A stretch of DNA of 64,000 nt from Thermodesulfobacteriota bacterium (GTDB lineage Bacteria > Desulfobacterota > Desulfobacteria > Desulfobacterales > SURF-7): assembly GCA_049320885.1 (NCBI GenBank), contig JBMORA010000048.1, positions 1-64,000 of the forward strand. Reading direction: 5' to 3'. The translations under genes and the position numbers were made by a program. Each line of letters begins with the position of its first letter. Within the stretch, counting starts at the first letter, position 1. Below the pieces are notes generated by a model. It was given only the letters and a program-made list of their open reading frames with translations. It did no database searches and was not told where the DNA came from. This document shows, one piece after another, positions 49,856 to 64,000 of the stretch.

Positions 49856-50401
49856 TTGACGAACATCATGTTTTATCTGGCGGCAGCGGTGGCGATCCTG
49901 TCGACACTGATGGTGATCACCCGGCTCAACGCGGTGCATGCACTGCTGTACCTGATCGTCTCCCTTCTTTCCGTGGCCCTGATCTTTTTCATGCTGGGAG
50001 CCCCTTTCGCCGCGGCCCTGGAGGTCATCATCTATGCAGGGGCCATCATGATCCTGTTTGTGTTCGTGATCATGATGCTCAACCTGGGACCGACGGCCAT
50101 CGAAAAGGAACGCCTGCTGCTGGCGCCCGGGATGTGGCCAGGACCGGCCCTGCTGACGGGGGTCCTGCTGGCTGAACTGTTTTATATTCTGGCCGGAAAT
50201 CCGCTCGGACCGGCGAGCGGGACGGAAGTAACCTCCCTTTCGGTGGGACTTTCCCTGTTCGGTCCTTACATGCTGGGAGTGGAACTGGCATCCATTCTGC
50301 TGCTGGCCGGACTGGTGGGCGCCTTTCACTTGGCCCGGCAAGGCACGGAAATGGAGGGAACCGTCAACCGGGCAAACACCGGCCGTCAACCGACGGGGTA
50401 A
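49856..50401 (+). CDS. nuoJ: NADH-quinone oxidoreductase subunit J
   Basis: NAVHALLYL, IIYAGAIMILFVFVIMML, ELASILLL. Confidence 0.95.
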   Translation: MTNIMFYLAAAVAILSTLMVITRLNAVHALLYLIVSLLSVALIFFMLGAPFAAALEVIIYAGAIMILFVFVIMMLNLGPTAIEKERLLLAPGMWPGPALLTGVLLAELFYILAGNPLGPASGTEVTSLSVGLSLFGPYMLGVELASILLLAGLVGAFHLARQGTEMEGTVNRANTGRQPTG

Positions 50402-50454
50402 CCGCAAACGGTCCCTGACAGGATAATCAATCGAATTCACTGGAGACGAAGAAC

Positions 50455-50763
50455 ATGCTCACCATCCCGACTTCCCACGGCCTGATGCTGGCCGGGGTTC
50501 TCTTCCTGATGGGATTCACCTGCGTGCTGGTGCGCCGCAACATCATCTTCATCCTGCTCGGTCTTGAAATCATGTTCAACGCCGCGGGGCTGGCTTTCGT
50601 CACGGCCGGCGCCCGCTGGGGCCAGCCCGACGGGCAGATCATGTTCCTGTTCATCCTGGCCACGGCCGCGGCGGAGGTCTCCATCGGGCTGGCCCTGGTG
50701 TTCCAGCTGGTCCGGCGCCTGCACACCCTGGACATGGATCAAGCCGACGGAATGAAAGGGTAA
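50455..50763 (+). CDS. nuoK: NADH-quinone oxidoreductase subunit K
   Basis: RRN...[19 protein letters not shown]. Confidence 0.96.
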
Positions 50764-50767
50764 CGCA

Positions 50768-52660
50768 ATGGAACTGCTGTGGTTGATACCCGCCCTGCCC
50801 CTGACCGGTTTCATCCTCCTGCTCCTTCTTTCCTCGCGTCTTCCGCGGGTTCTTACCGGCGCCCTGGGGACGGCCAGCGTGGGTCTCGCCGCCCTGACCA
50901 CGTTCTGGGTGGCCGCGGACTTTCTGTTCGCCAGGCCCCGGCCAGCCGTTTTCACCCAGCGGCTCTGGACCTGGATGGCGGTGGACCGCCTGCACCTCGA
51001 GATCGCTTTTCATCTGGACGCCCTGACCCTGATCATGATGCTGGTGATCACCGGCGTCGGCTTCTTGATCCATCTGTACTCCGTGGGATACATGGCCGGA
51101 GACAAGGGGTATGCCCGCTTTTTCGCCTACATGAACCTGTTCGTGGCCGCCATGCTGGTGCTGGTGCTGGCCGACAGCCTGCCCCTGCTCTATTTGGGCT
51201 GGGAGGGAGTCGGTCTGTGCAGCTATCTCTTAATCGGTTTCTGGTACGAAAATCCAGCCAACGGTTACGCCGCCAGAAAAGCCTTCGTGGTCACCCGGGT
51301 GGGGGATACGGCCATGGCCGTCGGCCTCTTCGTTCTGTATGACTGCTTCGGCGTCCTGGGGATTCAGGACGTCATGAACCATGCCGCCGCCGCCTGGCCG
51401 ACGGGATCGGTCACGGCCGTGGCAGTGGCTCTGCTGCTGCTGGGAGGAGCGGTGGGAAAATCCGCCCAACTCCCCTTACAGACCTGGCTGCCGGACGCCA
51501 TGGCCGGCCCCACGCCCGTCAGCGCCCTCATCCACGCCGCCACCATGGTGACCGCGGGCGTCTATCTCCTTGCCAGGACCCATGTGATCTTCCTGCTGGC
51601 GCCGGCGGTCCTGAACCTGACGGCCTGGATCGGCGCAGCCACCCTGCTGCTGGCCGGGTTCAGCGGACTGGTTCAGAGGGATATCAAGCGCGTCCTGGCC
51701 TACTCCACCATCAGCCAGCTCGGCTACATGTTCCTGGCCCTGGGGATCGGCGCCTGGTCCGCGGCGATTTTCCACCTGATGACCCACGCATTTTTCAAGG
51801 CCCTGCTCTTTCTGTGCGCCGGAGCGGTGATCCACGCCCTGGGCGGTGAACAGGACATGTACCGCATGGGCGGTCTGAAAGCAAAGCTGCCGCTGACGTT
51901 CTGGACCTTCCTCGTCGGCGCGGCCTCCCTTTCTGCCCTGCCGCTGATCACGGCCGGCTTTTACAGCAAGGACATGATCATCTGGGAGTCTTATGCTTCC
52001 CCCATGGGCGGTCCGGGCTTGTGGACGGCCGCTGTCGCGGGCGCCCTGCTCACCTCTCTTTACACCTTCCGCATGGTATGGCTCACCTTCGCGGGACCGG
52101 TCCGCACACCGGTGCATCATCCCCCGGGTACCGCCATGACCCTGCCCCTGCTGGCCCTGGCGGCCCTGTCCCTGTTTTCCGGATTTCTGGAAGTTCCCAA
52201 AACCCTGGGAGGCCCGCACCTGCTCTCCGGTTTCCTGCACGCCTGTCTGCCGCCGACCCTCCTGGCCCCGCAGCGGGAAAGCCAGGAAGCCCTGTTTGAA
52301 CTGATTTCCGCGGGTGTTGCGCTGCTGGGCATCCTGTGGGCCTGGCGACTCTACCGGCCCGCTTCCAGGGCCCTTCCCGAGAATCCGCCGGTATCCCCCC
52401 TGCCCGTGTTCCTGCGTAATTTCTGGTTCGGCGGCTGGGGTTTCGATCGCCTGTATGACTTTTTGCTGGTAACGCCTTATCTGACCCTGGCCCGGATCAA
52501 CCGAAACGACGTCATCGACGGCGCGTTTACGGCTCTTTCCCGGCTCGGCAAAACCGGGCACCGGAACCTTGCCCGGACCCAGAACGGACGCCTGCGCACC
52601 TATGCATGGGGCATCGGCATGGGCGCAGCGGCCGTCATCGCAATGGTGGTGCTCTTATGA
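50768..52660 (+). CDS. nuoL: NADH-quinone oxidoreductase subunit L
   Basis: IHLYSVGYM, GWEGVGLCSYLLIGFW, GKSAQLPLQTWLPDAMAGPTPVSALIHAATMV. Confidence 0.97.
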   Translation: MELLWLIPALPLTGFILLLLLSSRLPRVLTGALGTASVGLAALTTFWVAADFLFARPRPAVFTQRLWTWMAVDRLHLEIAFHLDALTLIMMLVITGVGFLIHLYSVGYMAGDKGYARFFAYMNLFVAAMLVLVLADSLPLLYLGWEGVGLCSYLLIGFWYENPANGYAARKAFVVTRVGDTAMAVGLFVLYDCFGVLGIQDVMNHAAAAWPTGSVTAVAVALLLLGGAVGKSAQLPLQTWLPDAMAGPTPVSALIHAATMVTAGVYLLARTHVIFLLAPAVLNLTAWIGAATLLLAGFSGLVQRDIKRVLAYSTISQLGYMFLALGIGAWSAAIFHLMTHAFFKALLFLCAGAVIHALGGEQDMYRMGGLKAKLPLTFWTFLVGAASLSALPLITAGFYSKDMIIWESYASPMGGPGLWTAAVAGALLTSLYTFRMVWLTFAGPVRTPVHHPPGTAMTLPLLALAALSLFSGFLEVPKTLGGPHLLSGFLHACLPPTLLAPQRESQEALFELISAGVALLGILWAWRLYRPASRALPENPPVSPLPVFLRNFWFGGWGFDRLYDFLLVTPYLTLARINRNDVIDGAFTALSRLGKTGHRNLARTQNGRLRTYAWGIGMGAAAVIAMVVLL

Positions 52661-54228
52661 TGCTTGCATGGCTCGTCCTGATACCGGTATGCGGCGGCAT
52701 CCTGGCCTGGACCCTGGACCGCCGGTTTCCGGGATCGGCCCGCTGGATATCGCTGATCACAATGCTGATGGACCTTGTGCTGTCGGTTTCCCTCCTGCCC
52801 GCCCGGCCGGCTGTCGACGCCGTGGCCGGCCCCTTTCTGACCTCCGTGGATTATCCCTGGATTCCGGCCCTCGGTATCCGCTTCCATCTCGCCATGGACG
52901 GACTCAGTCTGGTGCTGGTGCTGCTCACTCATTTTCTGGGGATCGTGGCCATCGCCTCCTCCTGGACCGAAATTGAACACCGGGCCGGCTTTTTCTTTTT
53001 CAATCTGTTGTGGGTCCTGGCCGGGATCATCGGTGTCTTTTTGGCCCTGGATCTGTTCCTCTTCTACTTTTTCTGGGAAATGATGCTGATTCCCATGTTT
53101 TTCCTGATCAGCGTTTTCGGGCATGAAAACCGGGTTTACGCCGCCGTCAAGTTTTTCCTTTTCACCCAGATCAGCGGCCTCCTCATGCTGCTCGCCATCC
53201 TGGGATTGTATTTCATCCACGGCCGCCATACCGGGCATTATACCTTCAACTATACGGAACTCCTCGGCACTCCGGTTGCCGGCATCACGGGGATCCTGCT
53301 CATGCTGGGATTCTTCACGGCCTTCGCGGTCAAGCTTCCGGCCGTTCCGGTCCACACCTGGCTTCCGGACGCTCATACCGAGGCGCCCACCGCCGGCAGC
53401 ATCATCCTGGCGGGTCTCCTGCTGAAGACCGGAGCCTATGGCATGATCCGCTTCGTGATCCCCCTGTTTCCGGAAGCCGCGGCTTTTCTGGCGCCCGCGG
53501 TTATGACCCTGGCCGTGATCGCCATCCTGTACGGCGCCTTGCTGGCTCTGTCCCAGACGGATTTCAAGCGGCTGGTGGCCTACACCAGCGTCAGTCACAT
53601 GGGGTTTGTCATGCTGGGGATTTTCGCCTGGAATCCCCTTGCCCTCCAGGGCGCCGTCATGCAGATCATCTGCCACGGACTTTCCACCGGCGCGCTTTTC
53701 TTCCTGGCAGGGGCCCTCCAGGAACGCCTTCTCAGCCGGGACATGGGTCGCATGGGCGGTTTGTGGAACTCCGTCCCGCGCATGGCCGGAATGGCGCTGT
53801 TTTTCTCCCTGGCCTCGCTGGGTCTGCCCGGACTGGGGAATTTCGTGGCCGAATTCACGGTGCTGATCGGCGTCTACCAGGTGAACGGTGTCATGGCCGT
53901 TTTCGCCTCCCTCGGCCTGATCGGCGCCGCCGTGTATTCCCTCTGGATCATCCAGGCCGTTTTTCACGGTCCTTCCCCGCGGGAACGCGTCCTTGCGGAC
54001 CTCTCGCTTCGCGAAACCGCGGCCCTCGGCGTCATGCTGGCTGCCCTGGTCATTCTGGGACTCTATCCCCAGCCGGTTTTCCGGACCTCCCAGCCGGCCC
54101 TGGACCATATGTCCCGATTTGTTTCCAGCGCCGGAAAAACCGGCCGGGGAATCTCTCCGGCCGCGTTCCATCGTGCCGTCAACCCTCCGCCCGCGGACCA
54201 TGGAGGCTTTCGCCATGCATCGCCCTGA
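52657..54228 (+). CDS. nuoM: NADH-quinone oxidoreductase subunit M
   Basis: DGLS, FYFFWE, VKLP.VP.HTWLPDAH.EAP, AYTSVSHMG; ATG overlaps the nuoL stop (ATGA). Confidence 0.96.
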   Translation: MMLAWLVLIPVCGGILAWTLDRRFPGSARWISLITMLMDLVLSVSLLPARPAVDAVAGPFLTSVDYPWIPALGIRFHLAMDGLSLVLVLLTHFLGIVAIASSWTEIEHRAGFFFFNLLWVLAGIIGVFLALDLFLFYFFWEMMLIPMFFLISVFGHENRVYAAVKFFLFTQISGLLMLLAILGLYFIHGRHTGHYTFNYTELLGTPVAGITGILLMLGFFTAFAVKLPAVPVHTWLPDAHTEAPTAGSIILAGLLLKTGAYGMIRFVIPLFPEAAAFLAPAVMTLAVIAILYGALLALSQTDFKRLVAYTSVSHMGFVMLGIFAWNPLALQGAVMQIICHGLSTGALFFLAGALQERLLSRDMGRMGGLWNSVPRMAGMALFFSLASLGLPGLGNFVAEFTVLIGVYQVNGVMAVFASLGLIGAAVYSLWIIQAVFHGPSPRERVLADLSLRETAALGVMLAALVILGLYPQPVFRTSQPALDHMSRFVSSAGKTGRGISPAAFHRAVNPPPADHGGFRHASP

Positions 54229-55657
54229 TTTCATCGCCGTCGCCCCGCTGCTGATTCTCGCTTTTTTTGCCGTCGCCGTCATGCTGGCCATCGCTCTGCG
54301 CCGGAATCATGCCGTCGCCGTGTCTCTCAGCCTGACGGGCCTTGCCGCAGCCCTGGGAGTTCTGCCCTTTTCGGCGCCCCTGACTCCGCGCCCCGTGACC
54401 CCCCTGTTGGTCGTGGACGGCTTCGCCCTGTTTTACCTGGGCCTGATTCTTTCGGCCGCCGCCGCCGTGGTTGTCTTTGCCTGGGATTATCTCCGCCGTC
54501 TGGACGACCTGCCGGAGGAGTTCTATTTCCTGCTGCTGGTTGCAACGCTGGGCGCCGGCATTCTGGCAGTCTGCCGGCATTTCGCCTCCCTGTTTCTGGG
54601 GCTGGAAATCCTCAGCGTTTCCCTCTATGGCTTGATCGCCTACACCCGCGACCGGAATGTCAGCATCGAGGCCGGGTTCAAATACCTGGTGCTGGCGGCC
54701 GTTTCCGCCGCCTTTCTGCTGTTCGGCGCGGCCCTGATCTATTCGGAAACCGGCGCCCTGGATTTCGGCAGCCTGCTGCCCCTGTTTCAAGCCGGACCGG
54801 CAGGACGGCAATCCCTGATGCTCCTCAGCGGCCTGGGGCTGGTGATCACGGCCGTCGGTTTCAAGCTGGCCCTGACGCCGTTTCACATGTGGACCCCGGA
54901 CATTTATCAAGGGGCCCCGGCGCCGGTGACGGCCTTCGTGGCCGCCGTCTCCAAGGGCGCCGTGGCGGCCCTGCTGGTGCGCCTGTTTGCACCCGTGGAT
55001 CTGCATCAATGGGGCTCCCTGTTCGTTGTTTTCGCCGTCATGGCCGGGGCCTCCATGATTGCCGGCAACCTGCTGGCCCTCATGCAGGACAACATCAAAC
55101 GCATCCTGGCCTATTCCTCCATCGCCCACATGGGGTATCTCCTCACCGCCTTCCTTTCCGGCGGGCGGGAAGCCGTTCTGGTGGTGACTTTCTACCTCAC
55201 GGCCTACATCATCAGCATCCTGGGGTGCTTCGGGGTGATCGCGGCCCTGTCTTCCAGGGAAGGGGACGTTGAAACCGTCGGGGATATCCGGGGGCTTTTC
55301 CTTCGCCGCCCATGGCTGACCGGCGTATTCACGGCCATGCTGCTGTCCCTGGCCGGCATTCCGCTCACCGCCGGATTTATCGGCAAGTTTTTCGTGGTGA
55401 CCGTCGGCATTCAAGCCGCCCACTGGGTACTGGTCGTCATCCTGGCCCTCACCAGCGGCGTGGGCCTGTTCTACTACCTGAAGATCATCATCGCCATGTT
55501 TTCACCGGCGCCGGAGGAAGCAGTAGGCGTTTTTTTGAATCGGCCCGCGGCATCGTCCATGGTTGCCCTGACCTTTGCCGTTCTTTCCGCGCTGCTGCTC
55601 TGGCTGGGCGTCGGACCGTCCTGGCTCATGCGGATGATCGGGAAAATGGTGGGATAA
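54215..55657 (+). CDS. nuoN: NADH-quinone oxidoreductase subunit N
   Basis: EAGFKY, FKL..PFHMWTPDIYQGAP, KRILAYSSIAHMGY, GIPLTAGFIGK. Confidence 0.96.
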   Translation: MHRPDFIAVAPLLILAFFAVAVMLAIALRRNHAVAVSLSLTGLAAALGVLPFSAPLTPRPVTPLLVVDGFALFYLGLILSAAAAVVVFAWDYLRRLDDLPEEFYFLLLVATLGAGILAVCRHFASLFLGLEILSVSLYGLIAYTRDRNVSIEAGFKYLVLAAVSAAFLLFGAALIYSETGALDFGSLLPLFQAGPAGRQSLMLLSGLGLVITAVGFKLALTPFHMWTPDIYQGAPAPVTAFVAAVSKGAVAALLVRLFAPVDLHQWGSLFVVFAVMAGASMIAGNLLALMQDNIKRILAYSSIAHMGYLLTAFLSGGREAVLVVTFYLTAYIISILGCFGVIAALSSREGDVETVGDIRGLFLRRPWLTGVFTAMLLSLAGIPLTAGFIGKFFVVTVGIQAAHWVLVVILALTSGVGLFYYLKIIIAMFSPAPEEAVGVFLNRPAASSMVALTFAVLSALLLWLGVGPSWLMRMIGKMVG

Positions 55658-55711
55658 CAGCCCCACCCTTCCCGGTTTCCGCCGGACTCGTTCAGAAACG
55701 GAGAATCGATC

Positions 55712-57220
55712 ATGCAGAAAAAACATATACCGGTCATCGTGGGAATTTCCCAGTACACTCAGCCGAAGGATGCGGCCTGTCCGCTGGATCCACTGGGATT
55801 GATGGCCAGAACCGGCCGGGAGGCCTTTGAGGAAGCCGGCGGCGGCAACCTGTTGCGGCAGTGCGACACCATCCGGGTGATCAATCTGGTCTCCTACCCC
55901 TATGCCGACGCCTGCGGCGAACTGGGAAGAACCCTCGGGATCAATCCTGGAAAAACCGTATACGGCGGCATCGGCGGCAACAGTCCTCAAATGTTCGTCA
56001 ACCAGGCAGCCGCGGAGATCGCCGCAGGCAACAGCCGCGTGACCCTCATCGCCGGCGCCGAGGCAGCGGCTTCCGTACGCCGCTTTCAGAAATCGAACAC
56101 CGCTCCCGACTGGCCGGCGGGCGGGATCCCCCAACGGATCGACACGGACAACCGGGAAGGATTTTCCCCTTTGGAAAGCCGGCACAATTTTCTGATCCCG
56201 GCTTTTGCCTATGCCATGCTGGAAAATGCCCTGAGACATGCCCTGGGGCGCGACCTGGAAGATCACCGCCTTGCCATGGGCCGCCTCTTTGAACGCTTCG
56301 CCCGCGCGGCCTCCCGCAACCCCCGGGCCTGGGTCCGGGAAGCATATACAGCGGACGCCATCACCCTGACCGGTCCCGACAACCGGATGGTCTGTTTCCC
56401 CTACACCATGCGCATGATCGCCAACTACTTCGTGGATCAATCCGCGGCCATCGTCATGACCAGCGAGGAAACGGCCGATGAGATCGGCATCCATCCGTCC
56501 CGGCGCATATACCCCATGGGCGGAGCCGGCCTCTGCAACATCTGGAATATGTCACGGCGGGCGGATCTGACCGATTCCCCGGCCTTGCGCGAGGCCATCT
56601 GGCTGGCCCTGGATCAGGCCGGAATCCGGACCGAGGACATCGATTTCTTCGATCTGTACAGCTGTTTTCCCTCGGCGGTGGAGATCGCCTGCCGGGAGCT
56701 CGGCATCCCGGAAAACGACCCCCGGGACCTGACGGTCACCGGCGGTCTGCCCTATTTCGGGGGGCCGGGAAACAACTACTCCCTGCACGCCATCGCCGGA
56801 GTCGTGGAAAGGCTTCGCGCCAACCCGGGACAGAAGGCTTTGGTCACCGCCCTGGGCTGGTACAACACCAAATGGGCCGTCGGTATTTATGGCAGTCTGC
56901 CCGGTGCCCATCCATGGGAGGAATCCGATTATTCCGCCATTCAGGAACGCATCGACGCGGAAGCCCTGCCGGAACCGCTGGAAGCGGCCGAGGGGAATCT
57001 ATGTATCGAAACCTATGTCATCGGCCACGGCCGCGCCGGCGAACCGGACCACGGAATTGTCCTGGGCCGTCTGGAAAACGGCCGGCGGGCCTTCGCCAGG
57101 ATCGACGCAGCCCCCCGAATTCTGGAAGAAATGGAAAAAACCGAGCTGATCGGATTGTCCGGCAGGGTCCGGCATGACGGCGACAGCGGATACAATTACG
57201 TCACCATCGAAGGGTTTTGA
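55712..57220 (+). CDS. Thiolase-like protein (acetyl-CoA acetyltransferase superfamily, non-canonical type)
   Basis: PVIVG, GGNSPQ, VDQSAAIV, DLYSCFPSAV, TVTGGLPYFGGPGNNYSLHAI plus an extra C-terminal domain. Confidence 0.85.
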   Translation: MQKKHIPVIVGISQYTQPKDAACPLDPLGLMARTGREAFEEAGGGNLLRQCDTIRVINLVSYPYADACGELGRTLGINPGKTVYGGIGGNSPQMFVNQAAAEIAAGNSRVTLIAGAEAAASVRRFQKSNTAPDWPAGGIPQRIDTDNREGFSPLESRHNFLIPAFAYAMLENALRHALGRDLEDHRLAMGRLFERFARAASRNPRAWVREAYTADAITLTGPDNRMVCFPYTMRMIANYFVDQSAAIVMTSEETADEIGIHPSRRIYPMGGAGLCNIWNMSRRADLTDSPALREAIWLALDQAGIRTEDIDFFDLYSCFPSAVEIACRELGIPENDPRDLTVTGGLPYFGGPGNNYSLHAIAGVVERLRANPGQKALVTALGWYNTKWAVGIYGSLPGAHPWEESDYSAIQERIDAEALPEPLEAAEGNLCIETYVIGHGRAGEPDHGIVLGRLENGRRAFARIDAAPRILEEMEKTELIGLSGRVRHDGDSGYNYVTIEGF

Positions 57221-57231
57221 TCCCTACCGCA

Positions 57232-57261
57232 GCGGGAAAGGCGGGCCGGCGCCTTTCCCGC
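57232..57261. terminator. GC-rich hairpin between convergent genes (probable terminator)
   Basis: GCGGGAAAGGCG-ggccgg-CGCCTTTCCCGC, 12-bp perfect stem; no clear U-tract. Confidence 0.6.
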
Positions 57262-57268
57262 CACTCCT

Positions 57269-57757
57269 CTAGATAAACTTCAGGTATTTGCTCTTCACGC
57301 TGATCAGTTCTTCACTGGTCAGTTTCAGGCGGCCCGCCAGGGTCTGCGCGAAAATCCGGTACAGGATGTAATACAGGGAGGCTTTCTCGGATTCGCTCAA
57401 GCGGTGCATGCTGGTATTGTCGATGGCCAGGCAGACGACATCCTCTTCCGCATATACGCTGGCGGTTCTGGAAAACTCGCCCAACAGGCTCATCTCGCCG
57501 AAAATATCTCCCCGTTTATCCAGTACGCACAACGGCCTGCCCTTCTTGGTGACGCGGATTCGGCCGAAAATCAGGATATACAGGTTGCCGTCATATGTGC
57601 CTTCCGTGATGATCTCTTCACCGGTTTTGTATTTGCGAATTTTGCTGAAGGCCAGCAAACGCTGGAGATCATGATCGCTGAAAGGACTGAGCGTCGGGAT
57701 ACGCTTCAAATCCGGAATGATTTTCTGGTTTGTTCCCAATGAAATGGATTCTAGCAT
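57269..57757 (-). CDS. Stand-alone cyclic-nucleotide-binding domain protein
   Basis: IITEG..DGNLYILIFG, GDIFGEMS...RTASV; RBS GAGG. Confidence 0.9.
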   Translation of the reverse strand: MLESISLGTNQKIIPDLKRIPTLSPFSDHDLQRLLAFSKIRKYKTGEEIITEGTYDGNLYILIFGRIRVTKKGRPLCVLDKRGDIFGEMSLLGEFSRTASVYAEEDVVCLAIDNTSMHRLSESEKASLYYILYRIFAQTLAGRLKLTSEELISVKSKYLKFI

Positions 57758-57815
57758 GACGGCACCTCACTTGGTTTTGTATTCAATGCATGCCTTGCAT
57801 GTCGATTATTTCTTT

Positions 57816-57832
57816 ATCAAGTACTGTGCCAA
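57816..57832 (-). promoter_or_regulatory. Sigma54-type promoter
   Basis: Minus strand TTGGCACAGTACTTGAT (GG-N10-GA), 58 bp upstream of the cNMP gene. Confidence 0.6.
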
Positions 57833-58391
57833 CTCGAAGGGTCTGATTGAATCATATGTGATAACAGGCAACTTTCAGCGGTTGGCCCGTACGGAAGACG
57901 GGAAAGACCTGTTCACAAAAAAAGACAGCTACGGACGTGGACTTTATCTTTTTGTCAGCGATGTCGACTTGCATGAAAGTGAATCGAAAAAACTGTGCGC
58001 GGAATGCAAGCATTAAACACTCGTCGGTGTGCTATCATTTTTAGCTGTTAAAAATAAAAATGAGCCGGAAAGTTCTTGGGGATTCGACGGCCATCACGAC
58101 TGGCCGTGGTGGTACCGGCAGAGGATCTATTTCCTCGGCCATCTGTACGGGCCGGCCTGATTCGGCCCCGGAACGAATCATTCATACTAATTCCATCCGA
58201 AAATTTTTAGTTCAATGCCCCACCCCCGAGCTAACCGGCTGATCGCGACGGCTGATTATACAATATTATATAATTTTTTAGAGATTTATATTGTAAATGG
58301 AATTATTCCGGCGGGCCGCCGTTATTAGCTGAAATGAACTATTTCATCCATGGTTAATTTTTGCTAACTTATTGTTTTTTTTATGAATATC

Positions 58392-58420
58392 TTGACAAAC
58401 CTCCGCTTTGTCATTATAAA
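58392..58420 (+). promoter_or_regulatory. Sigma70 promoter with overlapping palindrome
   Basis: TTGACA-N17-TATAAA; inverted repeat TGACAAA-N7-TTTGTCA (58393-58413). Confidence 0.7.
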
Positions 58421-58468
58421 GCAACTCCTTTCAACAAATCGTTAAAAAAAGGGTAGAGCCGATAACGC

Positions 58469-61129
58469 ATGAACAGAATCCGACAACTATTACATTCGAA
58501 AAAACGGTTGGTTGACGGCCTTGAGTTCCCGGACATCACCAAAGCCTCGGAAGAAGGCGGCTGCGGTGTTGTCGGCTTTTGCTGCACCAAGCCGGTTCCC
58601 GGACGTCATATCTATGAACCGTCGAGATTGATGCACAATCGCGGCAACGGCAAGGGCGGAGGGATCGCCGCGGTGGGACTCGTTCCGGAACAACTCGGCG
58701 TCGACCGCCGCGTTCTGGATGATTGTTATATGATCCATGTCGCCTTTTTGGATGCCGGCGTGCGCCCCGAATTGGAAAAAAAGTATCTTACACCGTACTT
58801 TGATGTGGAAACATCCCGCAAACTCGACACGGTGGATGACTGGACGGCCATCGCCGGACTGGAAGTGCGACCGCCGGATGTCTGGCGCTATTTTACCCGC
58901 GTCAAGCCGCCGGTTCTGGACGCCTTCATCCAGGAAAACCGGCTTGAAACCATCTCCCGGCGCGAAGCCGAGGAAGAATTCGTCAGTCAAAACAGTTTCA
59001 AGCTGAATCAGGAATATTACGCCTCGCTGAAGAATCAAAAAGCCTTCGTGCTGTCCCACGGCCGGGATATCATGATCCTGAAGGTGGTCGGCTATGCCGA
59101 GGCCATCGTCAAATATTATAAAATCGAGGAACTCGCCGCGCATGCCTGGATCGCGCACCAGCGTTTTCCCACCAAGGGCCGCGTATGGCACCCGGGTGGC
59201 GCCCATCCGTTTACGGCCATGAATATGGCCCTGGTCCATAACGGCGACTTTGCCAATTACCACTCCGTCACCGAATACCTGCTCCAGCGTCATATCTATC
59301 CGCAGTTCATCACGGATACCGAAGTGTCGGCCCTGATGTTCGATCTGCTCAACCGCACCTATAAATATCCGCTTGAATACATCATCGAGGCCCTGGCGCC
59401 CACCACCGAATTGGATTTCGACCACCTGCCCCTTGAAAAGCAGCGGGTATACCGGGCGATCCAGGCCACCCATATCCACGGATCGCCCGATGGGCCCTGG
59501 TTTTTCATCATCACCCGCAATCTTCCCGAAGAGAAAAAATTCCAACTGATCGGCATCACCGACACGTCCATGTTGCGGCCCCAGGTATTCGCCTTTTGCG
59601 ACGGCGACGTGCAGGTCGGGCTGATCGCCTCGGAAAAGCAGGCCATCGACGCCACCCTGCTCAGTCTGGCCCGGGATGACAGACGCATCTGCCCGGTTGC
59701 CGACCGGTATTGGAACGCCCGCGGCGGCAGCCACACGGACGGCGGCACCTTCATGTTCAATCTGGAGCCGGATGCCTCCGGCCAGATCCGGATGACCTGC
59801 ACGGATAAGTTCGGGAGCCCGGTGCTGCTGCCGAAACCGTCGGCGCCCTTTGACTTTACGAGAGAGGATGTTTTCGAGCCGGATGCGGCGATTGCCGACG
59901 AGATCAAGCGCGGCTTTGATACGGGTTCGGCGGAAACCGTCTTCGCTTATGTCCGCGACCATATGGCCGCCTGGCGTTTCGAGGATGTCAAGGCCGTATG
60001 CCGGGCCATCCGCAGACAGGCCATGGATCGCAACCATACGGCGACCGCCATCCAGGCCCTGACCCTGCTCAACGATCGGCGCTATCCCACCGGCCCCAAG
60101 AAACGGAGCCATCTCCTGCATATGATCCGCACGGAGCTGAATCGATTGTTTGACGACCTGCCGGCCATTGCGAAGAACGACAGGGATGGCGGCGCCTATC
60201 GTCGGATCGATTATCAAACCCGCCATGCCCTGCGGCCGCCCATGGGTGACGAGACCACCCTCGTCATCCATGCGGACGTCTTCCCCGCCGAAGGCGCCGA
60301 GTGTGACGCGGCGCTGCTGGTGGATGCCTATAACAAAGGCTGGCGGAGATTTATCAGCTACAATTGTTCCGGACAGCGCTATGTCGGTTGCGGACTGGGA
60401 CCGGAAACGGACGGCGTCGTCATCGACGTATACGGCAGTTCGGGCGATTATCTGGGCTCCGGCATCGACGGTTTGACCATCACGGTGCACGACAACGCCC
60501 AGGACCAGCTGGGGCAGATCATCAAGCGCGGTAAACTGGTGGTGTACGGCGATGTTGGCCAGACCTTCCTCTACGGCGCCAAGGGCGGTGAAGTGTATGT
60601 CATGGGGAACGCGGCGGGCCGACCGCTGATCAATTCCGTGGGCCGGCCCCGGGTGGTGATCAACGGCACCTCCCTCGATTTTCTGGCCGAATCCTTCATG
60701 GCCGGCGATCCGCATCAAAACGGCGGCTTTGTGGTGTTGAACGGCATCCGGTTCGATGACGACGGCCGCATTGTTCCCCTGGACGAACCCTATCCCGGCA
60801 GCAATCTGTTCTCCCTGGCTTCCGGCGGCGCGATCTATATCCGCGATCCCCGGCAGGTATCCGTTGCCGGTCAATTGAACGGCGGCGTATTCCTGCCGTT
60901 GACCGAAAAGGATTGGGAATTGATCTTGCCCTATCTGGAAGAGAATGAACGTTTGTTCGGTATCCGGATTACGGACCTGCTGACCGTGGACGGAAAATTG
61001 TCCGCCCCGGAAAACGTGTACCGGAAGGTCGTGCCCGTTGCGGTGGCCGCGAAAATGCCCCGGCAACCGCAACCGCCGGTGAGGGCGGAGGAAACCGAAC
61101 AGGAAACCGTGGGTGATCTTTCAAATTAG
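58469..61129 (+). CDS. Glutamate synthase-related protein: class II glutamine amidotransferase + GXGXG domains, no FMN domain
   Basis: Short propeptide then CGVVG (Ntn Cys); HNRG, AHQRFPT, AHPF, HNGD, TDTE; C-terminal GQRYVG, GSSGDYLGSG, GDVGQTFLYGAKGG beta-helix repeats. Confidence 0.85.
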   Translation: MNRIRQLLHSKKRLVDGLEFPDITKASEEGGCGVVGFCCTKPVPGRHIYEPSRLMHNRGNGKGGGIAAVGLVPEQLGVDRRVLDDCYMIHVAFLDAGVRPELEKKYLTPYFDVETSRKLDTVDDWTAIAGLEVRPPDVWRYFTRVKPPVLDAFIQENRLETISRREAEEEFVSQNSFKLNQEYYASLKNQKAFVLSHGRDIMILKVVGYAEAIVKYYKIEELAAHAWIAHQRFPTKGRVWHPGGAHPFTAMNMALVHNGDFANYHSVTEYLLQRHIYPQFITDTEVSALMFDLLNRTYKYPLEYIIEALAPTTELDFDHLPLEKQRVYRAIQATHIHGSPDGPWFFIITRNLPEEKKFQLIGITDTSMLRPQVFAFCDGDVQVGLIASEKQAIDATLLSLARDDRRICPVADRYWNARGGSHTDGGTFMFNLEPDASGQIRMTCTDKFGSPVLLPKPSAPFDFTREDVFEPDAAIADEIKRGFDTGSAETVFAYVRDHMAAWRFEDVKAVCRAIRRQAMDRNHTATAIQALTLLNDRRYPTGPKKRSHLLHMIRTELNRLFDDLPAIAKNDRDGGAYRRIDYQTRHALRPPMGDETTLVIHADVFPAEGAECDAALLVDAYNKGWRRFISYNCSGQRYVGCGLGPETDGVVIDVYGSSGDYLGSGIDGLTITVHDNAQDQLGQIIKRGKLVVYGDVGQTFLYGAKGGEVYVMGNAAGRPLINSVGRPRVVINGTSLDFLAESFMAGDPHQNGGFVVLNGIRFDDDGRIVPLDEPYPGSNLFSLASGGAIYIRDPRQVSVAGQLNGGVFLPLTEKDWELILPYLEENERLFGIRITDLLTVDGKLSAPENVYRKVVPVAVAAKMPRQPQPPVRAEETEQETVGDLSN

Positions 61130-61156
61130 CATGGGTCAAACACGCATAGGATTGAT

Positions 61157-61726
61157 ATGACCATCAGAATCAAAAGAGGCCGATCCGCTCCGTCCCTGAC
61201 AGATTCGGTCCGGGAGATCTCGGGCGTGGATCTCGGGGCCTGCTACCAGTGCCGGAAATGCTCCTGCGGTTGCACCGTAACCGGGCATGCCCAATCCCCC
61301 CCTGCTGAAATCATCAGACGTCTGCAACTGGGCGCAGGGCATGAACTGCTCCGTAACGATCTGATCTGGACCTGCGTTTCCTGCGAAACCTGTTCTGCCC
61401 GCTGTCCCATGGGGGTCGACCTGGTGGCCGTCATGGACGCCCTGCGCGCCCTGGCCGTCGCGCAGCAAGCACCCGTCCCGGAAGGCAACGTCCCGCTGTT
61501 CAACAAGGCGTTTCTCAAGACGGTGGCCCTCTTCGGCCGGACATACGATCTGGGTCTGATGGCGGCTTATAAGATCGGCACCGCCTCCTATGGCCGGGAT
61601 GCGGATAAAATCCCCCTGCTGCTCCGGAAAAAAAAAATTGCGCTGCTGCCGTCGCTGAGCCCCGGACGCCGGGCGGTAAAAAGAATTTTTCAACAAACCG
61701 GACAAAACAAGGGAAATATCAAATGA
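61157..61726 (+). CDS. hdrC: Heterodisulfide reductase subunit C
   Basis: CYQCRKCSCGC and CVSCETCSARCP ferredoxin motifs; IIRRLQLG. Confidence 0.9.
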   Translation: MTIRIKRGRSAPSLTDSVREISGVDLGACYQCRKCSCGCTVTGHAQSPPAEIIRRLQLGAGHELLRNDLIWTCVSCETCSARCPMGVDLVAVMDALRALAVAQQAPVPEGNVPLFNKAFLKTVALFGRTYDLGLMAAYKIGTASYGRDADKIPLLLRKKKIALLPSLSPGRRAVKRIFQQTGQNKGNIK

Positions 61727-62601
61727 GATATGCCTATTATCCCGGATGTTCAGCGGAATCCTCGGCCCGGGACCTGCACGCTTCCAGTCTGGCCGTAACC
61801 CGCAAGCTGGGCATCGAGCTGAAGGAGATCCCGGGCTGGTCCTGCTGCGGCGCCACACCCGCCCACCAGACCGATCGCATCCTGGCGGCATCCCTGCCGG
61901 CCGCCAATCTGGCCAAGGCCCGGGACATGGGCCTGGACATCGTGGTGAACTGCGCCGCCTGTTACAACCGGTTGAAAATGGCCAATCACGAAATCCGGAA
62001 CCATTCGGACATGCGGAAAAAAGTGGGGAAGGCCCTGGGCCGGGATTACGACGGTTCGGTCAAGGTCCGGCACCTGATGGAAGTGCTCCTCGAGGATGTC
62101 GGCCTGCCGGAACTTGCGGGAGCGCTGCCCCATTCCCTGGGCGGGCTGAAAGTCGCCTCGTATTACGGCTGCCTGCTGGTTCGTCCCCATGAAGTCACCC
62201 GTTTCGACGATCCTGAAAATCCCCAGGCAATGGACCGGCTGGTAACGGCCATGGGCGGAGAAAGCCTGGACTGGCCTGCCAAGGTCGACTGCTGCGGCAA
62301 CAGTCTGTCGCTGACGACCCAATCGAATCTGGTGGTGGATTTTTCCGACAAGATCATCCAGATGGCCAAGGCCGCGGGAGCCGAATGTATCGCCACCGCC
62401 TGTCCCCTGTGCCAGGTCAACCTGGACCTCCGGCAGAGCGACATCCAAAAGCAAACCGGGCGGAAATACAACCTGCCTGTTTTTTACATCACCCAACTGC
62501 TGGGGTTATGCCTGGGTCTTTCCCGGGCGGAACTCGGTCTGAACAAGCTGGTGGTTTCTTCATCACGGATTGAAAAAGCCGTGCAAGCGGCTGCGGTATA
62601 A
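61723..62601 (+). CDS. hdrB: Heterodisulfide reductase subunit B
   Basis: YYPGC, CCG, CAACY, YYGC, CCG, CPLCQ.NLD: two CCG domains. Confidence 0.93.
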   Translation: MRYAYYPGCSAESSARDLHASSLAVTRKLGIELKEIPGWSCCGATPAHQTDRILAASLPAANLAKARDMGLDIVVNCAACYNRLKMANHEIRNHSDMRKKVGKALGRDYDGSVKVRHLMEVLLEDVGLPELAGALPHSLGGLKVASYYGCLLVRPHEVTRFDDPENPQAMDRLVTAMGGESLDWPAKVDCCGNSLSLTTQSNLVVDFSDKIIQMAKAAGAECIATACPLCQVNLDLRQSDIQKQTGRKYNLPVFYITQLLGLCLGLSRAELGLNKLVVSSSRIEKAVQAAAV

Positions 62602-62622
62602 ATGGTAAGGGGCGTTGACATT

Positions 62623-64000
62623 ATGGCAAATACGGAAATGAAGAAAACCGGCGCGGTGCTGGTGCAGGGCGGCGGAATCGCGGGGGTTCAGGCCTCCCTC
62701 GATCTCGCCAATTCCGGTTTCAAGGTGTATCTCATCGAACGTTCCGCCGCCATCGGCGGCATGATGTCCCATCTGGACAAGACCTTTCCCACCGGAGATT
62801 GCGCCACGTGTATTGTTTCCCCCAAGCTGGTGGAATGCGCCCGGAATTTGAACATCGAAATCCTGACCCACGCGGAACTGGTCGGCATCGAGGGCGAGCC
62901 CGGTCATTTCACCGCCGCCGTGAGGCAGTCTCCGCGGTATGTCCGTGAAACCATCTGCAATGACTGCGGCGACTGCTATTCCGTCTGCCCGGTGGATATC
63001 CGGGACCGGTTCAATCGGGACCTGGGAACACGCAAGGCCATCGCCAAATACTCCCCCCAGGCCGTGCCGAATATAGCCGGAATTCTCAAGCTGGGCCATG
63101 CGCCCTGTAAAACCGGATGCCCCGCCAATATCAACGTGCAGGGCTATGTCCAGCTGATCAAGAAAAAGGAATACGTCAAGGCCGTCAACCTGATCCGGGA
63201 AAGAAACCCCCTGTCCGCCATCTGCGGCCGGGTCTGCACCCATCCCTGCGAAAGCGCCTGCCGCCGCGGCAAGGTGGATGCGCCGGTGGCCATCCGGCAG
63301 TTGAAACGGTTTGCCTCGGACAAGGAAATGGAACTGCTGGCCGAAGGCAAGATCTCCCTGCCGCCGGAACAATTTCCGGCAGCGGACGCCCCGAAAATCG
63401 CGGTGATCGGCGCCGGCCCTTCCGGCCTCACGGCCGCCCAGGATCTGGCCGATCGCGGCTACGCCGTAACCATCTATGAATCATCGCCTGCGGCCGGCGG
63501 GATGCTGCGCTGGGGCATCCCGGCCTATCGGCTTCCGGTGAACGTGCTGGATCATGAGGTCGAACTGATCCGGCGCAAAGGCGTCGCCTTTGTTTACAAC
63601 TGCAAGATCGGGAAGGACATCACTTTTGATCAACTTCGCCGCGACCATGCCGCGGTCTTTGTCGGCGTCGGCGCCCAGAAAGGCGCCCCCATGAATGTCA
63701 AGGGCGAAGACCTGGACGGAGTTGTCCAGGGGTTGGATTTCCTGCACCGGTCCGGAACGGAAGCCGACAAGCCGGCGCTTACGGGTCATGTGGTCGTTGT
63801 CGGCGGCGGGGATGTGGCCATGGATGCCGCCTGTTCCGCCAGACGGCTCGGCGCCCGAACCGTCAGCATCCTCTACCGCCGGACGGAAACGGAATTGCCG
63901 GCCATTCAGGAAGAAATCAACCATGCCCGGGAAGAAGGCGTTCGGTTTGAATTCCTCACGACGCCGGTGGAATTCATCGGCGATGGCCAGGGCCGGCTGC
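62623..64000 (+). CDS. hdrA: HdrA-like flavoprotein with inserted GltD-like NAD(P)H oxidoreductase module (HdrL type), 3'-truncated by window edge
   Basis: Not in the ORF track because it has no stop in the window. Translates VLVQGGGIAGVQASLDLA...LDKTFPTGDCATC, CNDCGDC...CP, then PCKTGCP...CGRVCTHPCESAC, IAVIGAGPSG, GGMLRWGIPAYRLP, VVGGGDVAMD, YRR. Confidence 0.9.
   Translation, partial: MANTEMKKTGAVLVQGGGIAGVQASLDLANSGFKVYLIERSAAIGGMMSHLDKTFPTGDCATCIVSPKLVECARNLNIEILTHAELVGIEGEPGHFTAAVRQSPRYVRETICNDCGDCYSVCPVDIRDRFNRDLGTRKAIAKYSPQAVPNIAGILKLGHAPCKTGCPANINVQGYVQLIKKKEYVKAVNLIRERNPLSAICGRVCTHPCESACRRGKVDAPVAIRQLKRFASDKEMELLAEGKISLPPEQFPAADAPKIAVIGAGPSGLTAAQDLADRGYAVTIYESSPAAGGMLRWGIPAYRLPVNVLDHEVELIRRKGVAFVYNCKIGKDITFDQLRRDHAAVFVGVGAQKGAPMNVKGEDLDGVVQGLDFLHRSGTEADKPALTGHVVVVGGGDVAMDAACSARRLGARTVSILYRRTETELPAIQEEINHAREEGVRFEFLTTPVEFIGDGQGRL

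Follow-up and report, generated by a model that had tools for sequence, protein, structure and literature searches.

Why should the amidotransferase subunit of a glutamate synthase (GOGAT) be encoded in one operon with heterodisulfide reductase (Hdr) genes? The question is raised by a 64,000-nucleotide (nt) stretch of DNA from a Thermodesulfobacteriota bacterium (the window; positions 1 to 64,000 of contig JBMORA010000048.1, forward strand, assembly GCA_049320885.1), which ends in four co-directional genes for a glutamine amidotransferase (GAT), HdrC, HdrB and an HdrA with an internal GltD-like module (HdrL). An initial annotation had described this arrangement and placed it behind one promoter, and both the open reading frames and the intergenic distances of 27, -4 and 21 nt bear the gene layout out. 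In the source genome (5.6 Mb, 98% complete), where the positions of this contig (C48) continue the window numbering, six further co-directional genes follow beyond the window edge with gaps of -35 to 47 nt, reaching contig position 72624. The whole operon has ten genes, GAT-hdrC-hdrB-hdrL-mvhD1(Sec)-metV-mvhD2-metF-FMN_A-FMN_B, of which the window covers four:

58392..58420, + strand: predicted sigma70-like promoter, TTGACA-17-TATAAA, both hexamers kept in the same-genus genome G002
58469..61129, + strand: GAT, class II glutamine amidotransferase fused to a GXGXG beta-helix, 886 amino acids (aa), identified by Pfam and invariant motifs
61157..61726, + strand: hdrC, 189 aa, two 4Fe-4S motifs
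61723..62601, + strand: hdrB, 292 aa, two CCG domains, cysteines kept
62623..67092, + strand (5' part, 62623..64000, in the window): hdrL, a Moorella-type hdrA, 1489 aa, two fused HdrA halves and a GltD-like NAD(P)H module
67140-67592, + strand: mvhD1, in-frame TGA, predicted selenocysteine
67589-68257, + strand: metV
68290-68688, + strand: mvhD2, four Cys, no ADLAG motif
68728-69633, + strand: variant metF, His at the Asp120 site
69648-71069, + strand: FMN_A, 473 aa, Glu_synthase-domain gene, predicted dead Fe-S twin of the synthase domain
71035-72624, + strand: FMN_B, ~529 aa, ferredoxin domain and intact synthase domain, TTG start inferred

Gene content and motifs suggest that GAT, FMN_A and FMN_B (the trio) very probably constitute an assimilatory glutamate synthase. 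We further lean towards a three-subunit enzyme that would be fed electrons from NAD(P)H via a co-opted Hdr-MvhD-MetV-MetF chain, with the variant MetF as relay. The promoter claim stands in part: the element listed above fits it, but the consensus promoter scanner reported no + strand promoter in 57200-64000, TTGACA-17-TATAAA (last T missing) going unlisted, and co-transcription is suggested by the gene spacing. The flavin mononucleotide (FMN)-binding synthase partner, expected downstream or elsewhere, and the mvhD gene looked for downstream were both located there, each as a pair of genes (FMN_A and FMN_B, mvhD1 and mvhD2).

As had been read from the window, the Pfam matches of GAT are limited to GATase_6 (E 1.8e-5, below cut-off) and GXGXG (PF01493, E 8e-14, residues 635-796). 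A 31-residue leader is followed by Cys32, the putative nucleophile, and the motifs EGGCGV, R58, HQR, HNG and TE, which align with PurF and GlmS, are invariant in all 71 orthologues. FMN_B matches PF01645 (E 1.7e-87) as well as residues 816-1170 of Azospirillum brasilense GltB (E 3e-50) and keeps MSxG, GEGG and QGAKPG in 77/77 sequences; it is the predicted synthase subunit, carrying the domain that binds FMN and 2-oxoglutarate. FMN_A, a paralogue of FMN_B over its full length (24% identity), has QGAKPG and GEGG in 0/88 sequences and 12 invariant cysteines, and it would therefore be a catalytically dead iron-sulfur twin. The best fold match of its structural model (predicted local distance difference test, pLDDT, 80) is the FMN domain of GltB, residues 781-1194 (Z 23.8, rmsd 3.6, 310 aligned), and the top rows of a Foldseek search with this model were general FMN barrels only. 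Orthology of FMN_A to the central domain of GltB is unsupported, as Glu_syn_central matched with E 9e-4 versus 5e-10 for Glu_synthase and the fold is that of the FMN domain; probably, FMN_A fills the place and scaffold role of the central domain. Both FMN_A and FMN_B have a ferredoxin-like domain of their own. Complex prediction for FMN_A with the variant MetF returned no verdict (score 0.00).

With GltB/GltD of A. brasilense (PDB 1ea0, 2vdc, 6s6s) the operon shares the class II amidotransferase with leader and Cys nucleophile, the FMN synthase domain, the GXGXG beta-helix and a GltD-type NAD(P)H module, the latter, however, located inside HdrL. Unlike GltB/GltD, the synthase is spread over three polypeptides and has an amidotransferase-GXGXG fusion. 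Where GltB has its central domain, there is instead a dead Fe-S copy of the synthase domain; further differences are additional ferredoxin domains, a cluster motif with four Cys and the lack of a free GltD. Split archaeal-type glutamate synthases and MgsABC likewise have GltB domains on separate genes and a ferredoxin-fused FMN subunit, but the operon differs from them by the duplicated, dead FMN subunit, the GATase-GXGXG fusion and the MvhD, Met and Hdr partners; gmaS and mgd were not found with TIGR03105 and TIGR01373. F420-dependent split glutamate synthase types are mentioned in 10.1101/2021.09.25.461819. The source genome itself encodes a second split glutamate synthase on contig C33 (83530-88712, - strand; L038:7531-12713), composed of a 397-aa, weakly GAT-like gene, a ferredoxin-FMN gene and a GXGXG-GltD fusion, with carA/carB- and purF-like genes adjoining.

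The genes between GAT and FMN_A are, judged by order and domain content, a Moorella-type HdrCBA-MvhD-MetVF set, as all six genes are found, identically ordered (hdrC-hdrB-hdrA-mvhD-metV-metF), for the Hdr-type methylenetetrahydrofolate reductase (MTHFR) of Moorella thermoacetica and Sporomusa ovata (PMC9430772, PMC5736913, PMC6085437). The HdrA of Moorella is described as a protein of 1487 aa with two thioredoxin reductase (TrxR)-like domains, a GltD insert, the Glu/Lys pairs E696/K750 and E1204/K1246, and a second half that lacks the inserted ferredoxin domain (PMC9430772). HdrL, with 1489 aa, two TrxR-like halves, the GltD insert and both Glu/Lys pairs, fits this published description, by which, and not by sequence, the two were compared. 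Its GltD-like module, noted from the window, spans ~residues 156-630 and bears the motif GGGDVAMD...YRR. The pair of the first half, E701/K754 (numbered from Ala2 throughout; equivalents of E356/K409 of PDB 5odc), is kept in 50/50 orthologues, and E1203/K1244 of the second half in 46/50 and 48/50, respectively. Because the insert is a known feature of Moorella-type HdrA (PMC9430772), it is by itself no sign of a GOGAT beta subunit. Unlike the Moorella and Sporomusa sets, the operon has a second, divergent mvhD, a MetF without the folate-binding Asp and three glutamate-synthase genes, and its neighbourhoods hold nitrogen genes, versus Wood-Ljungdahl genes there.

Two functional links proposed in the initial annotation were overstated. 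The NADPH-type YRR motif occurs in only 6/50 HdrL orthologues; an acidic motif, by the usual Rossmann-fold rule a mark of NADH preference, stands at that place in the other 44, suggesting that NADH is favoured there. As to ferredoxin bifurcation, the inserted domain by which methanogen HdrA docks ferredoxin (PMC9430772) is interrupted by the GltD module in the first half of HdrL and absent from the second, which argues against a simple methanogen-like scheme. Thus, with methanogen HdrABC-MvhAGD (PDB 5odc) the operon has in common the HdrA TrxR domain with E356/K409 equivalents, the HdrB cysteines, HdrC and MvhD, but not an uninterrupted ferredoxin domain, and it contains no hydrogenase genes. 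A scheme with a separate MvhD docked to either half of HdrL was abandoned, as alignment of the N- and C-terminal HdrA domains is confined to the second half. An HdrL-type fusion is known as well from the sulfate reducer Desulfobacterium autotrophicum HRM2, where an HdrA/GltD fusion is followed by mvhD and MvhD contains selenocysteine; the account of its hdrA/hdrL loci in PMC2702500 names mvhD, dsr and fdh genes and, in the parts concerned with them, leaves GltB-type neighbours unmentioned. A paralogous hdrL-mvhD-metV-metF cluster with an intact MetF Asp is located on contig C16 of the source genome (12185-18660, - strand); its HdrL, MvhD and MetV are 46-49% identical to those of the operon, and no hdrB or hdrC matches were found on that contig.

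The two MvhD proteins form separate branches in a quick tree. Codon 19 of mvhD1 is an in-frame TGA in 6/34 copies, including that of the source genome, and a Cys codon in 28/34. No significant selenocysteine insertion sequence fold was detected after the mvhD1 TGA (z -0.19); the alternation of Cys and TGA among the copies and the presence of selA in the genome point to selenocysteine. The MvhDs on the side of the trio keep four cysteines and have the ADLAG motif in 0/64 rows (a few cut at the N-terminus), as compared to 36/38 Hdr-adjacent rows (some genomes counted twice) and 7/8 other MvhDs of the source genome.

The model of the variant MetF is an MTHFR TIM barrel (pLDDT 91, TM 0.71-0.78 to MTHFRs) with His at the position of E. 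coli Asp120. This Asp is absent from all 77 Hdr-type copies (Y59/F10/H7/T1) and present in the 5 MetF sequences from Hdr-less operons (82 sequences in all) and in 19 Hdr-less loci of the wider set described below. In the control, made up of 36 MTHFR domains from outside the operon after one operon copy was dropped, Asp occupies the site in 35 and Glu in one. The Gln183 site carries Gln in the source genome and in 48/82 sequences and is replaced in 34/82, by His in 26. Asp120 is called invariant and essential (PMC9900621), and a D120N variant retains 0.3% of kcat (PMC11094777; see also PMC11868366). We propose that the variant MetF has lost folate chemistry and acts as flavin relay or scaffold. 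A second MTHFR-domain gene was found in 33/33 genomes checked, in four of them as weak matches only; the source genome has eight MTHFR-domain matches in all.

Relatives of the operon were collected by scanning GTDB with an FMN_A alignment, the close set being the best 80 of at least 569 confirmed stretches (600 candidates), and adjacency was counted only for genes that lay no closer than 700 nt to the end of their locus. These best 80 come under eight phylum labels (Desulfobacterota/Thermodesulfobacteriota, Planctomycetota, Verrucomicrobiota, Bacteroidota, Ignavibacteriota, Spirochaetota, Chloroflexota and FCPU426). As to the link to DsrC considered initially, the source genome has dsrA, but many of the holders come from phyla that are not known to reduce sulfate. 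GAT adjoins hdrC in 62/62 loci, the conservation on which the first reading of the window had depended, hdrC adjoins hdrB in 59/60 and hdrB adjoins hdrL in 60/60. On the other side, mvhD2-metF (76/76), metF-FMN_A (79/79) and FMN_B-GAT (65/70) are similarly kept, and metV, with an orthologue in 30 of these genomes, directly follows hdrL-mvhD1 in 29. The operon occurs in two circularly permuted orders, both with all ten genes, starting with mvhD2 in most genomes and with GAT in the source genome and its near relatives; metV and the variant metF stand at opposite operon ends in most genomes. In a FastTree phylogeny, the 23 Hdr-type GAT sequences included all fall into a single branch (support 100).

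Beyond these relatives, FMN_A orthologues are present in 86 of 301 genomes sampled from the phylum, and 40 of the 86 loci, picked for long contigs and family spread, were fetched as the distant set. FMN_A and FMN_B are found in 40/40 and GAT in 39/40 (outside the fetched stretch in one), and their partners vary: mvhD-metV-metF with intact Asp and no hdr in 19 loci, mvhD only in 8, mvhD-metV in 3, an FAD-linked Fe-S oxidoreductase in 4, other hdrA arrangements in 3 and the HdrL-MetF variant type in 3. In total, mvhD is present in 36/40 loci, metF is missing from 11 of these 36, and 34/40 have no neighbouring hdrA. These counts suggest that the trio forms a stable core with MvhD as its most constant partner, and that Hdr was added in a clade-specific way. 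The idea that HdrL-BC replaces the GOGAT beta subunit accordingly holds as far as no stand-alone gltD lies next to the trio in the 40 loci, GltD-like sequence occurring there only inside HdrL, but it does not extend to the many trio loci without hdrA, and the GltD insert is typical of Moorella-type HdrA anyway. FMN_A and FMN_B are fused in 4/40 distant loci, as single frames of 974-1052 aa in L222, L223, L224 and L230. At L250 (6075-7919), L251, L253 and L254, which group together in the GAT tree, the gene immediately before FMN_A is not mvhD but encodes an FAD-linked oxidase of 614-623 aa with a 4Fe-4S dicluster domain, a possible substrate-driven electron input.

The recurring flank genes of the operon loci are nrpR, amtB, P-II, glnA, gdhA and GAF-sigma54 (NifA-like) regulators. 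Among close loci whose flanks cover 4 kb or more, nitrogen genes lie near 14/61 (26/61 with the NifA-like regulators), versus 0.8% and 1.2% of same-size random windows of the source genome, with queries drawn from the flanks themselves and kin that are not independent. Among the distant loci, glnA is found in 17/40 and any of glnA, amtB, P-II, nrpR and gdhA in 20/40. These neighbourhoods bear out the suggested link to ammonium assimilation. Matches to the NrpR operator GGAA-N6-TTCC occur in 54/126 loci, by eye mostly intragenic and not clustered in leaders. In the GAT leaders of four same-family relatives (L023, L024, L025, L026), ANTAR-type hairpins with A1/G4 hexaloops overlap a terminator; such hairpins are the signature of ANTAR sites, which are reported at glutamate synthase genes of Desulfotomaculum reducens (PMC3369931). 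A two-hairpin rule recovered 1/109 leaders and a looser rule, drawn up with the motif already in view, 4/109, all from this family, and the element was rejected as a general operon feature. Rfam returned nothing in six leader-containing loci.

Several regulatory or nitrogen-related elements were seen alongside. The source genome has an ANTAR-type element at C9:103052-103135, after a GAF-ANTAR-regulator-like gene and before a partial Glu_synthase match. Recurrent regulators (L029:5085-6380, L073:2407-4728) combine a KaiC-like N-terminus with GAF and sigma54-activator domains, or a similar N-terminus with XRE-HTH and cupin domains. At L220:6889-7299, a ~130-aa protein with no Pfam match is encoded in the vicinity of the operon, glnA and a class I amidotransferase, and similar genes recur in L221, L059 and L087.

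From the observed gene content, motifs, conservation and neighbourhoods we infer an activity, a complex, and a direction and path of electron flow. The trio would work with glutamine synthetase in ammonium assimilation: GAT would hydrolyse glutamine to ammonia, FMN_B would add the ammonia to 2-oxoglutarate, followed by reduction on FMN, and FMN_A, the dead twin, would contribute Fe-S clusters and probably the scaffold. The enzyme family would do without GltD and receive electrons via exchangeable input modules, most often a dedicated MvhD, and in the source clade the input would be the co-opted Moorella-type HdrL-HdrCB-MvhD-MetV-MetF set. There, NAD(P)H would be oxidised at the GltD module inside HdrL, NADPH in this organism and NADH in most relatives, and electrons would pass from HdrL through MvhD, MetV and the variant MetF, a flavin relay or scaffold free of folate chemistry, to the Fe-S chain of FMN_A and FMN_B.

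The GOGAT couple lies near -45 to -75 mV, ~50 kJ/mol downhill from NADH, and by these assumed potentials it could drive ferredoxin reduction with 23-28 kJ/mol to spare. Only tentatively, we consider that the flow is energy-coupled, glutamine/2-oxoglutarate being a high-potential sink with which the HdrL flavins drive electrons from NAD(P)H to a low-potential carrier or tap a thiol pool via HdrB; such coupling is allowed since the Glu/Lys pairs and the HdrB cysteines are kept. As part of the same tentative idea, the wider family may be a modular GOGAT whose own MvhD connects it, in a lineage-dependent manner, to methyl-tetrahydrofolate (methyl-THF) oxidation, an Hdr hub or an FAD-linked substrate dehydrogenase.

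Several observations weigh against an Hdr-fed glutamate synthase with MetF as relay. The intact cysteines of HdrB have no assigned role in it, and the operon flanks in the source genome contain neither a nitrogen gene nor an ANTAR element. The close loci are the best-scoring 80 of at least 569, and since the Hdr-type operons form a single clade, the 62/62 GAT-hdrC adjacencies represent one origin and not 62 events. Although FMN_B is the sole strong Glu_synthase match in 9 of 38 genomes (30 without completeness value), which favours the proposed role, a canonical ~1500-aa gltB is also present in 21, a second split synthase, such as the source genome has, in 7, and a contig-edge fragment in 1, so that the operon is often redundant as GOGAT. 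The catalytic Glu28 of the variant MetF is invariant (82/82), and the fold and, in this organism, the Gln183 equivalent are kept. In 19/40 distant loci the trio has an intact MetF as neighbour, as would be expected if the family performed real folate chemistry. In Sporomusa, HdrBCA-MvhD and MetVF failed to co-purify (PMC9430772), indicating that Hdr and Met modules can be loose.

In an alternative reading, two active enzymes share one hub, the variant MetF-MetV still being a methylene-THF reductase or methyl-THF oxidase and HdrL-BC distributing electrons among folate, NAD(P)(H) and glutamate synthesis, with methyl-THF, for instance, as donor. The conserved Glu28 and fold, the invariable position of metF directly before FMN_A in the close loci, the intact MetF with MetV and MvhD that precedes the trio in those 19 distant loci, and the occurrence of ACS and dsrA in the source genome agree with this, as does the transfer from methyl-THF (-200 mV) to the GOGAT couple, downhill by ~25-30 kJ/mol with the assumed GOGAT potential. 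We regard such a hub as unlikely, however, as an Asp described as invariant and essential (PMC9900621) is replaced in every Hdr-type copy and Gln183 in 34/82, metV and metF are separated to the two operon ends in most genomes, and a separate hdrL-mvhD-metV-metF cluster on contig C16 of the source genome retains the Asp. The genes might also be co-regulated with no physical complex, the trio depending on ferredoxin and the Hdr-MvhD-Met part supplying a soluble carrier, or having been captured once and travelling under nitrogen control. The absence of hdr from 34/40 distant trio loci, the single origin of the Hdr type, the ferredoxin-like domains of FMN_A and FMN_B and the loose association of MetVF and Hdr in Sporomusa (PMC9430772) are compatible with this, but we find it quite unlikely: ten genes were kept through inter-phylum transfers and a rearrangement that split FMN_B from GAT and spared GAT-hdrC, the MetF change tracks the Hdr-type operon, and mvhD accompanies the trio in 36/40 loci with an FAD/Fe-S oxidoreductase in the same place in the other 4, which points to a bound donor module.

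That the trio is an N-methylglutamate synthase, initially named among the options, or a catabolic glutamate-oxidising enzyme feeding Hdr, appears very improbable. N-methylglutamate synthase is likewise split into amidotransferase, GXGXG and FMN subunits, and a canonical gltB is already present in 21/38 holders; yet the pathway partners were not recognised, neither GmaS-type glutamine synthetase nor SoxB/MgdA exceeding the cut-off in the source genome, where one family was searched for each (TIGR03105, best 318 bits, cut-off 470; TIGR01373, best 33 bits, cut-off 529), and the recurring flank families included none that was recognised as such a gene. The neighbours are instead glnA, amtB, P-II and nrpR, and conversion of glutamate to glutamine and 2-oxoglutarate is, by assumed potentials, ~50 kJ/mol uphill against NAD+.

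Upstream of the operon, positions 49856-57757 of the window encode membrane subunits that, recognised by eye, presumably are related to NuoJ/K/L/M/N, a thiolase-like protein (55712-57220) and a cNMP-binding protein (57269-57757); no counterparts of these genes were recognised in the flank families that recur at the operon loci. Downstream (L001:15930-17700; contig C48 ~72930-74700) lie a transposase-like remnant and a small two-gene pair, which we take to resemble an addiction module.

A literature search, with supplements outside its scope, found no published description of the glutamate-synthase trio together with Hdr-MvhD-MetVF. All parts belong to known families, and the operon, in its build and proposed wiring, is a real, conserved and apparently undescribed variant. 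Annotated as metF and hdrABC, its genes are likely to be mistaken for an acetogen-type methylene-THF reductase or for sulfur metabolism. The second electron acceptor of the Hdr-MvhD-MetVF module is stated to be unknown in PMC9430772, and the proposed wiring, if true, would provide a testable partner reaction for this module. It would also define an undescribed, GltD-less branch of a textbook enzyme with swappable electron inputs, present in 86/301 sampled genomes of the phylum and also in genomes with seven other phylum labels. When nitrogen is scarce, ammonium is assimilated mainly through glutamate synthase, whose NAD(P)H-driven form wastes, by assumed potentials, ~50 kJ/mol. The operon is common to many anaerobic bacteria and suggests an undescribed way of powering nitrogen assimilation.

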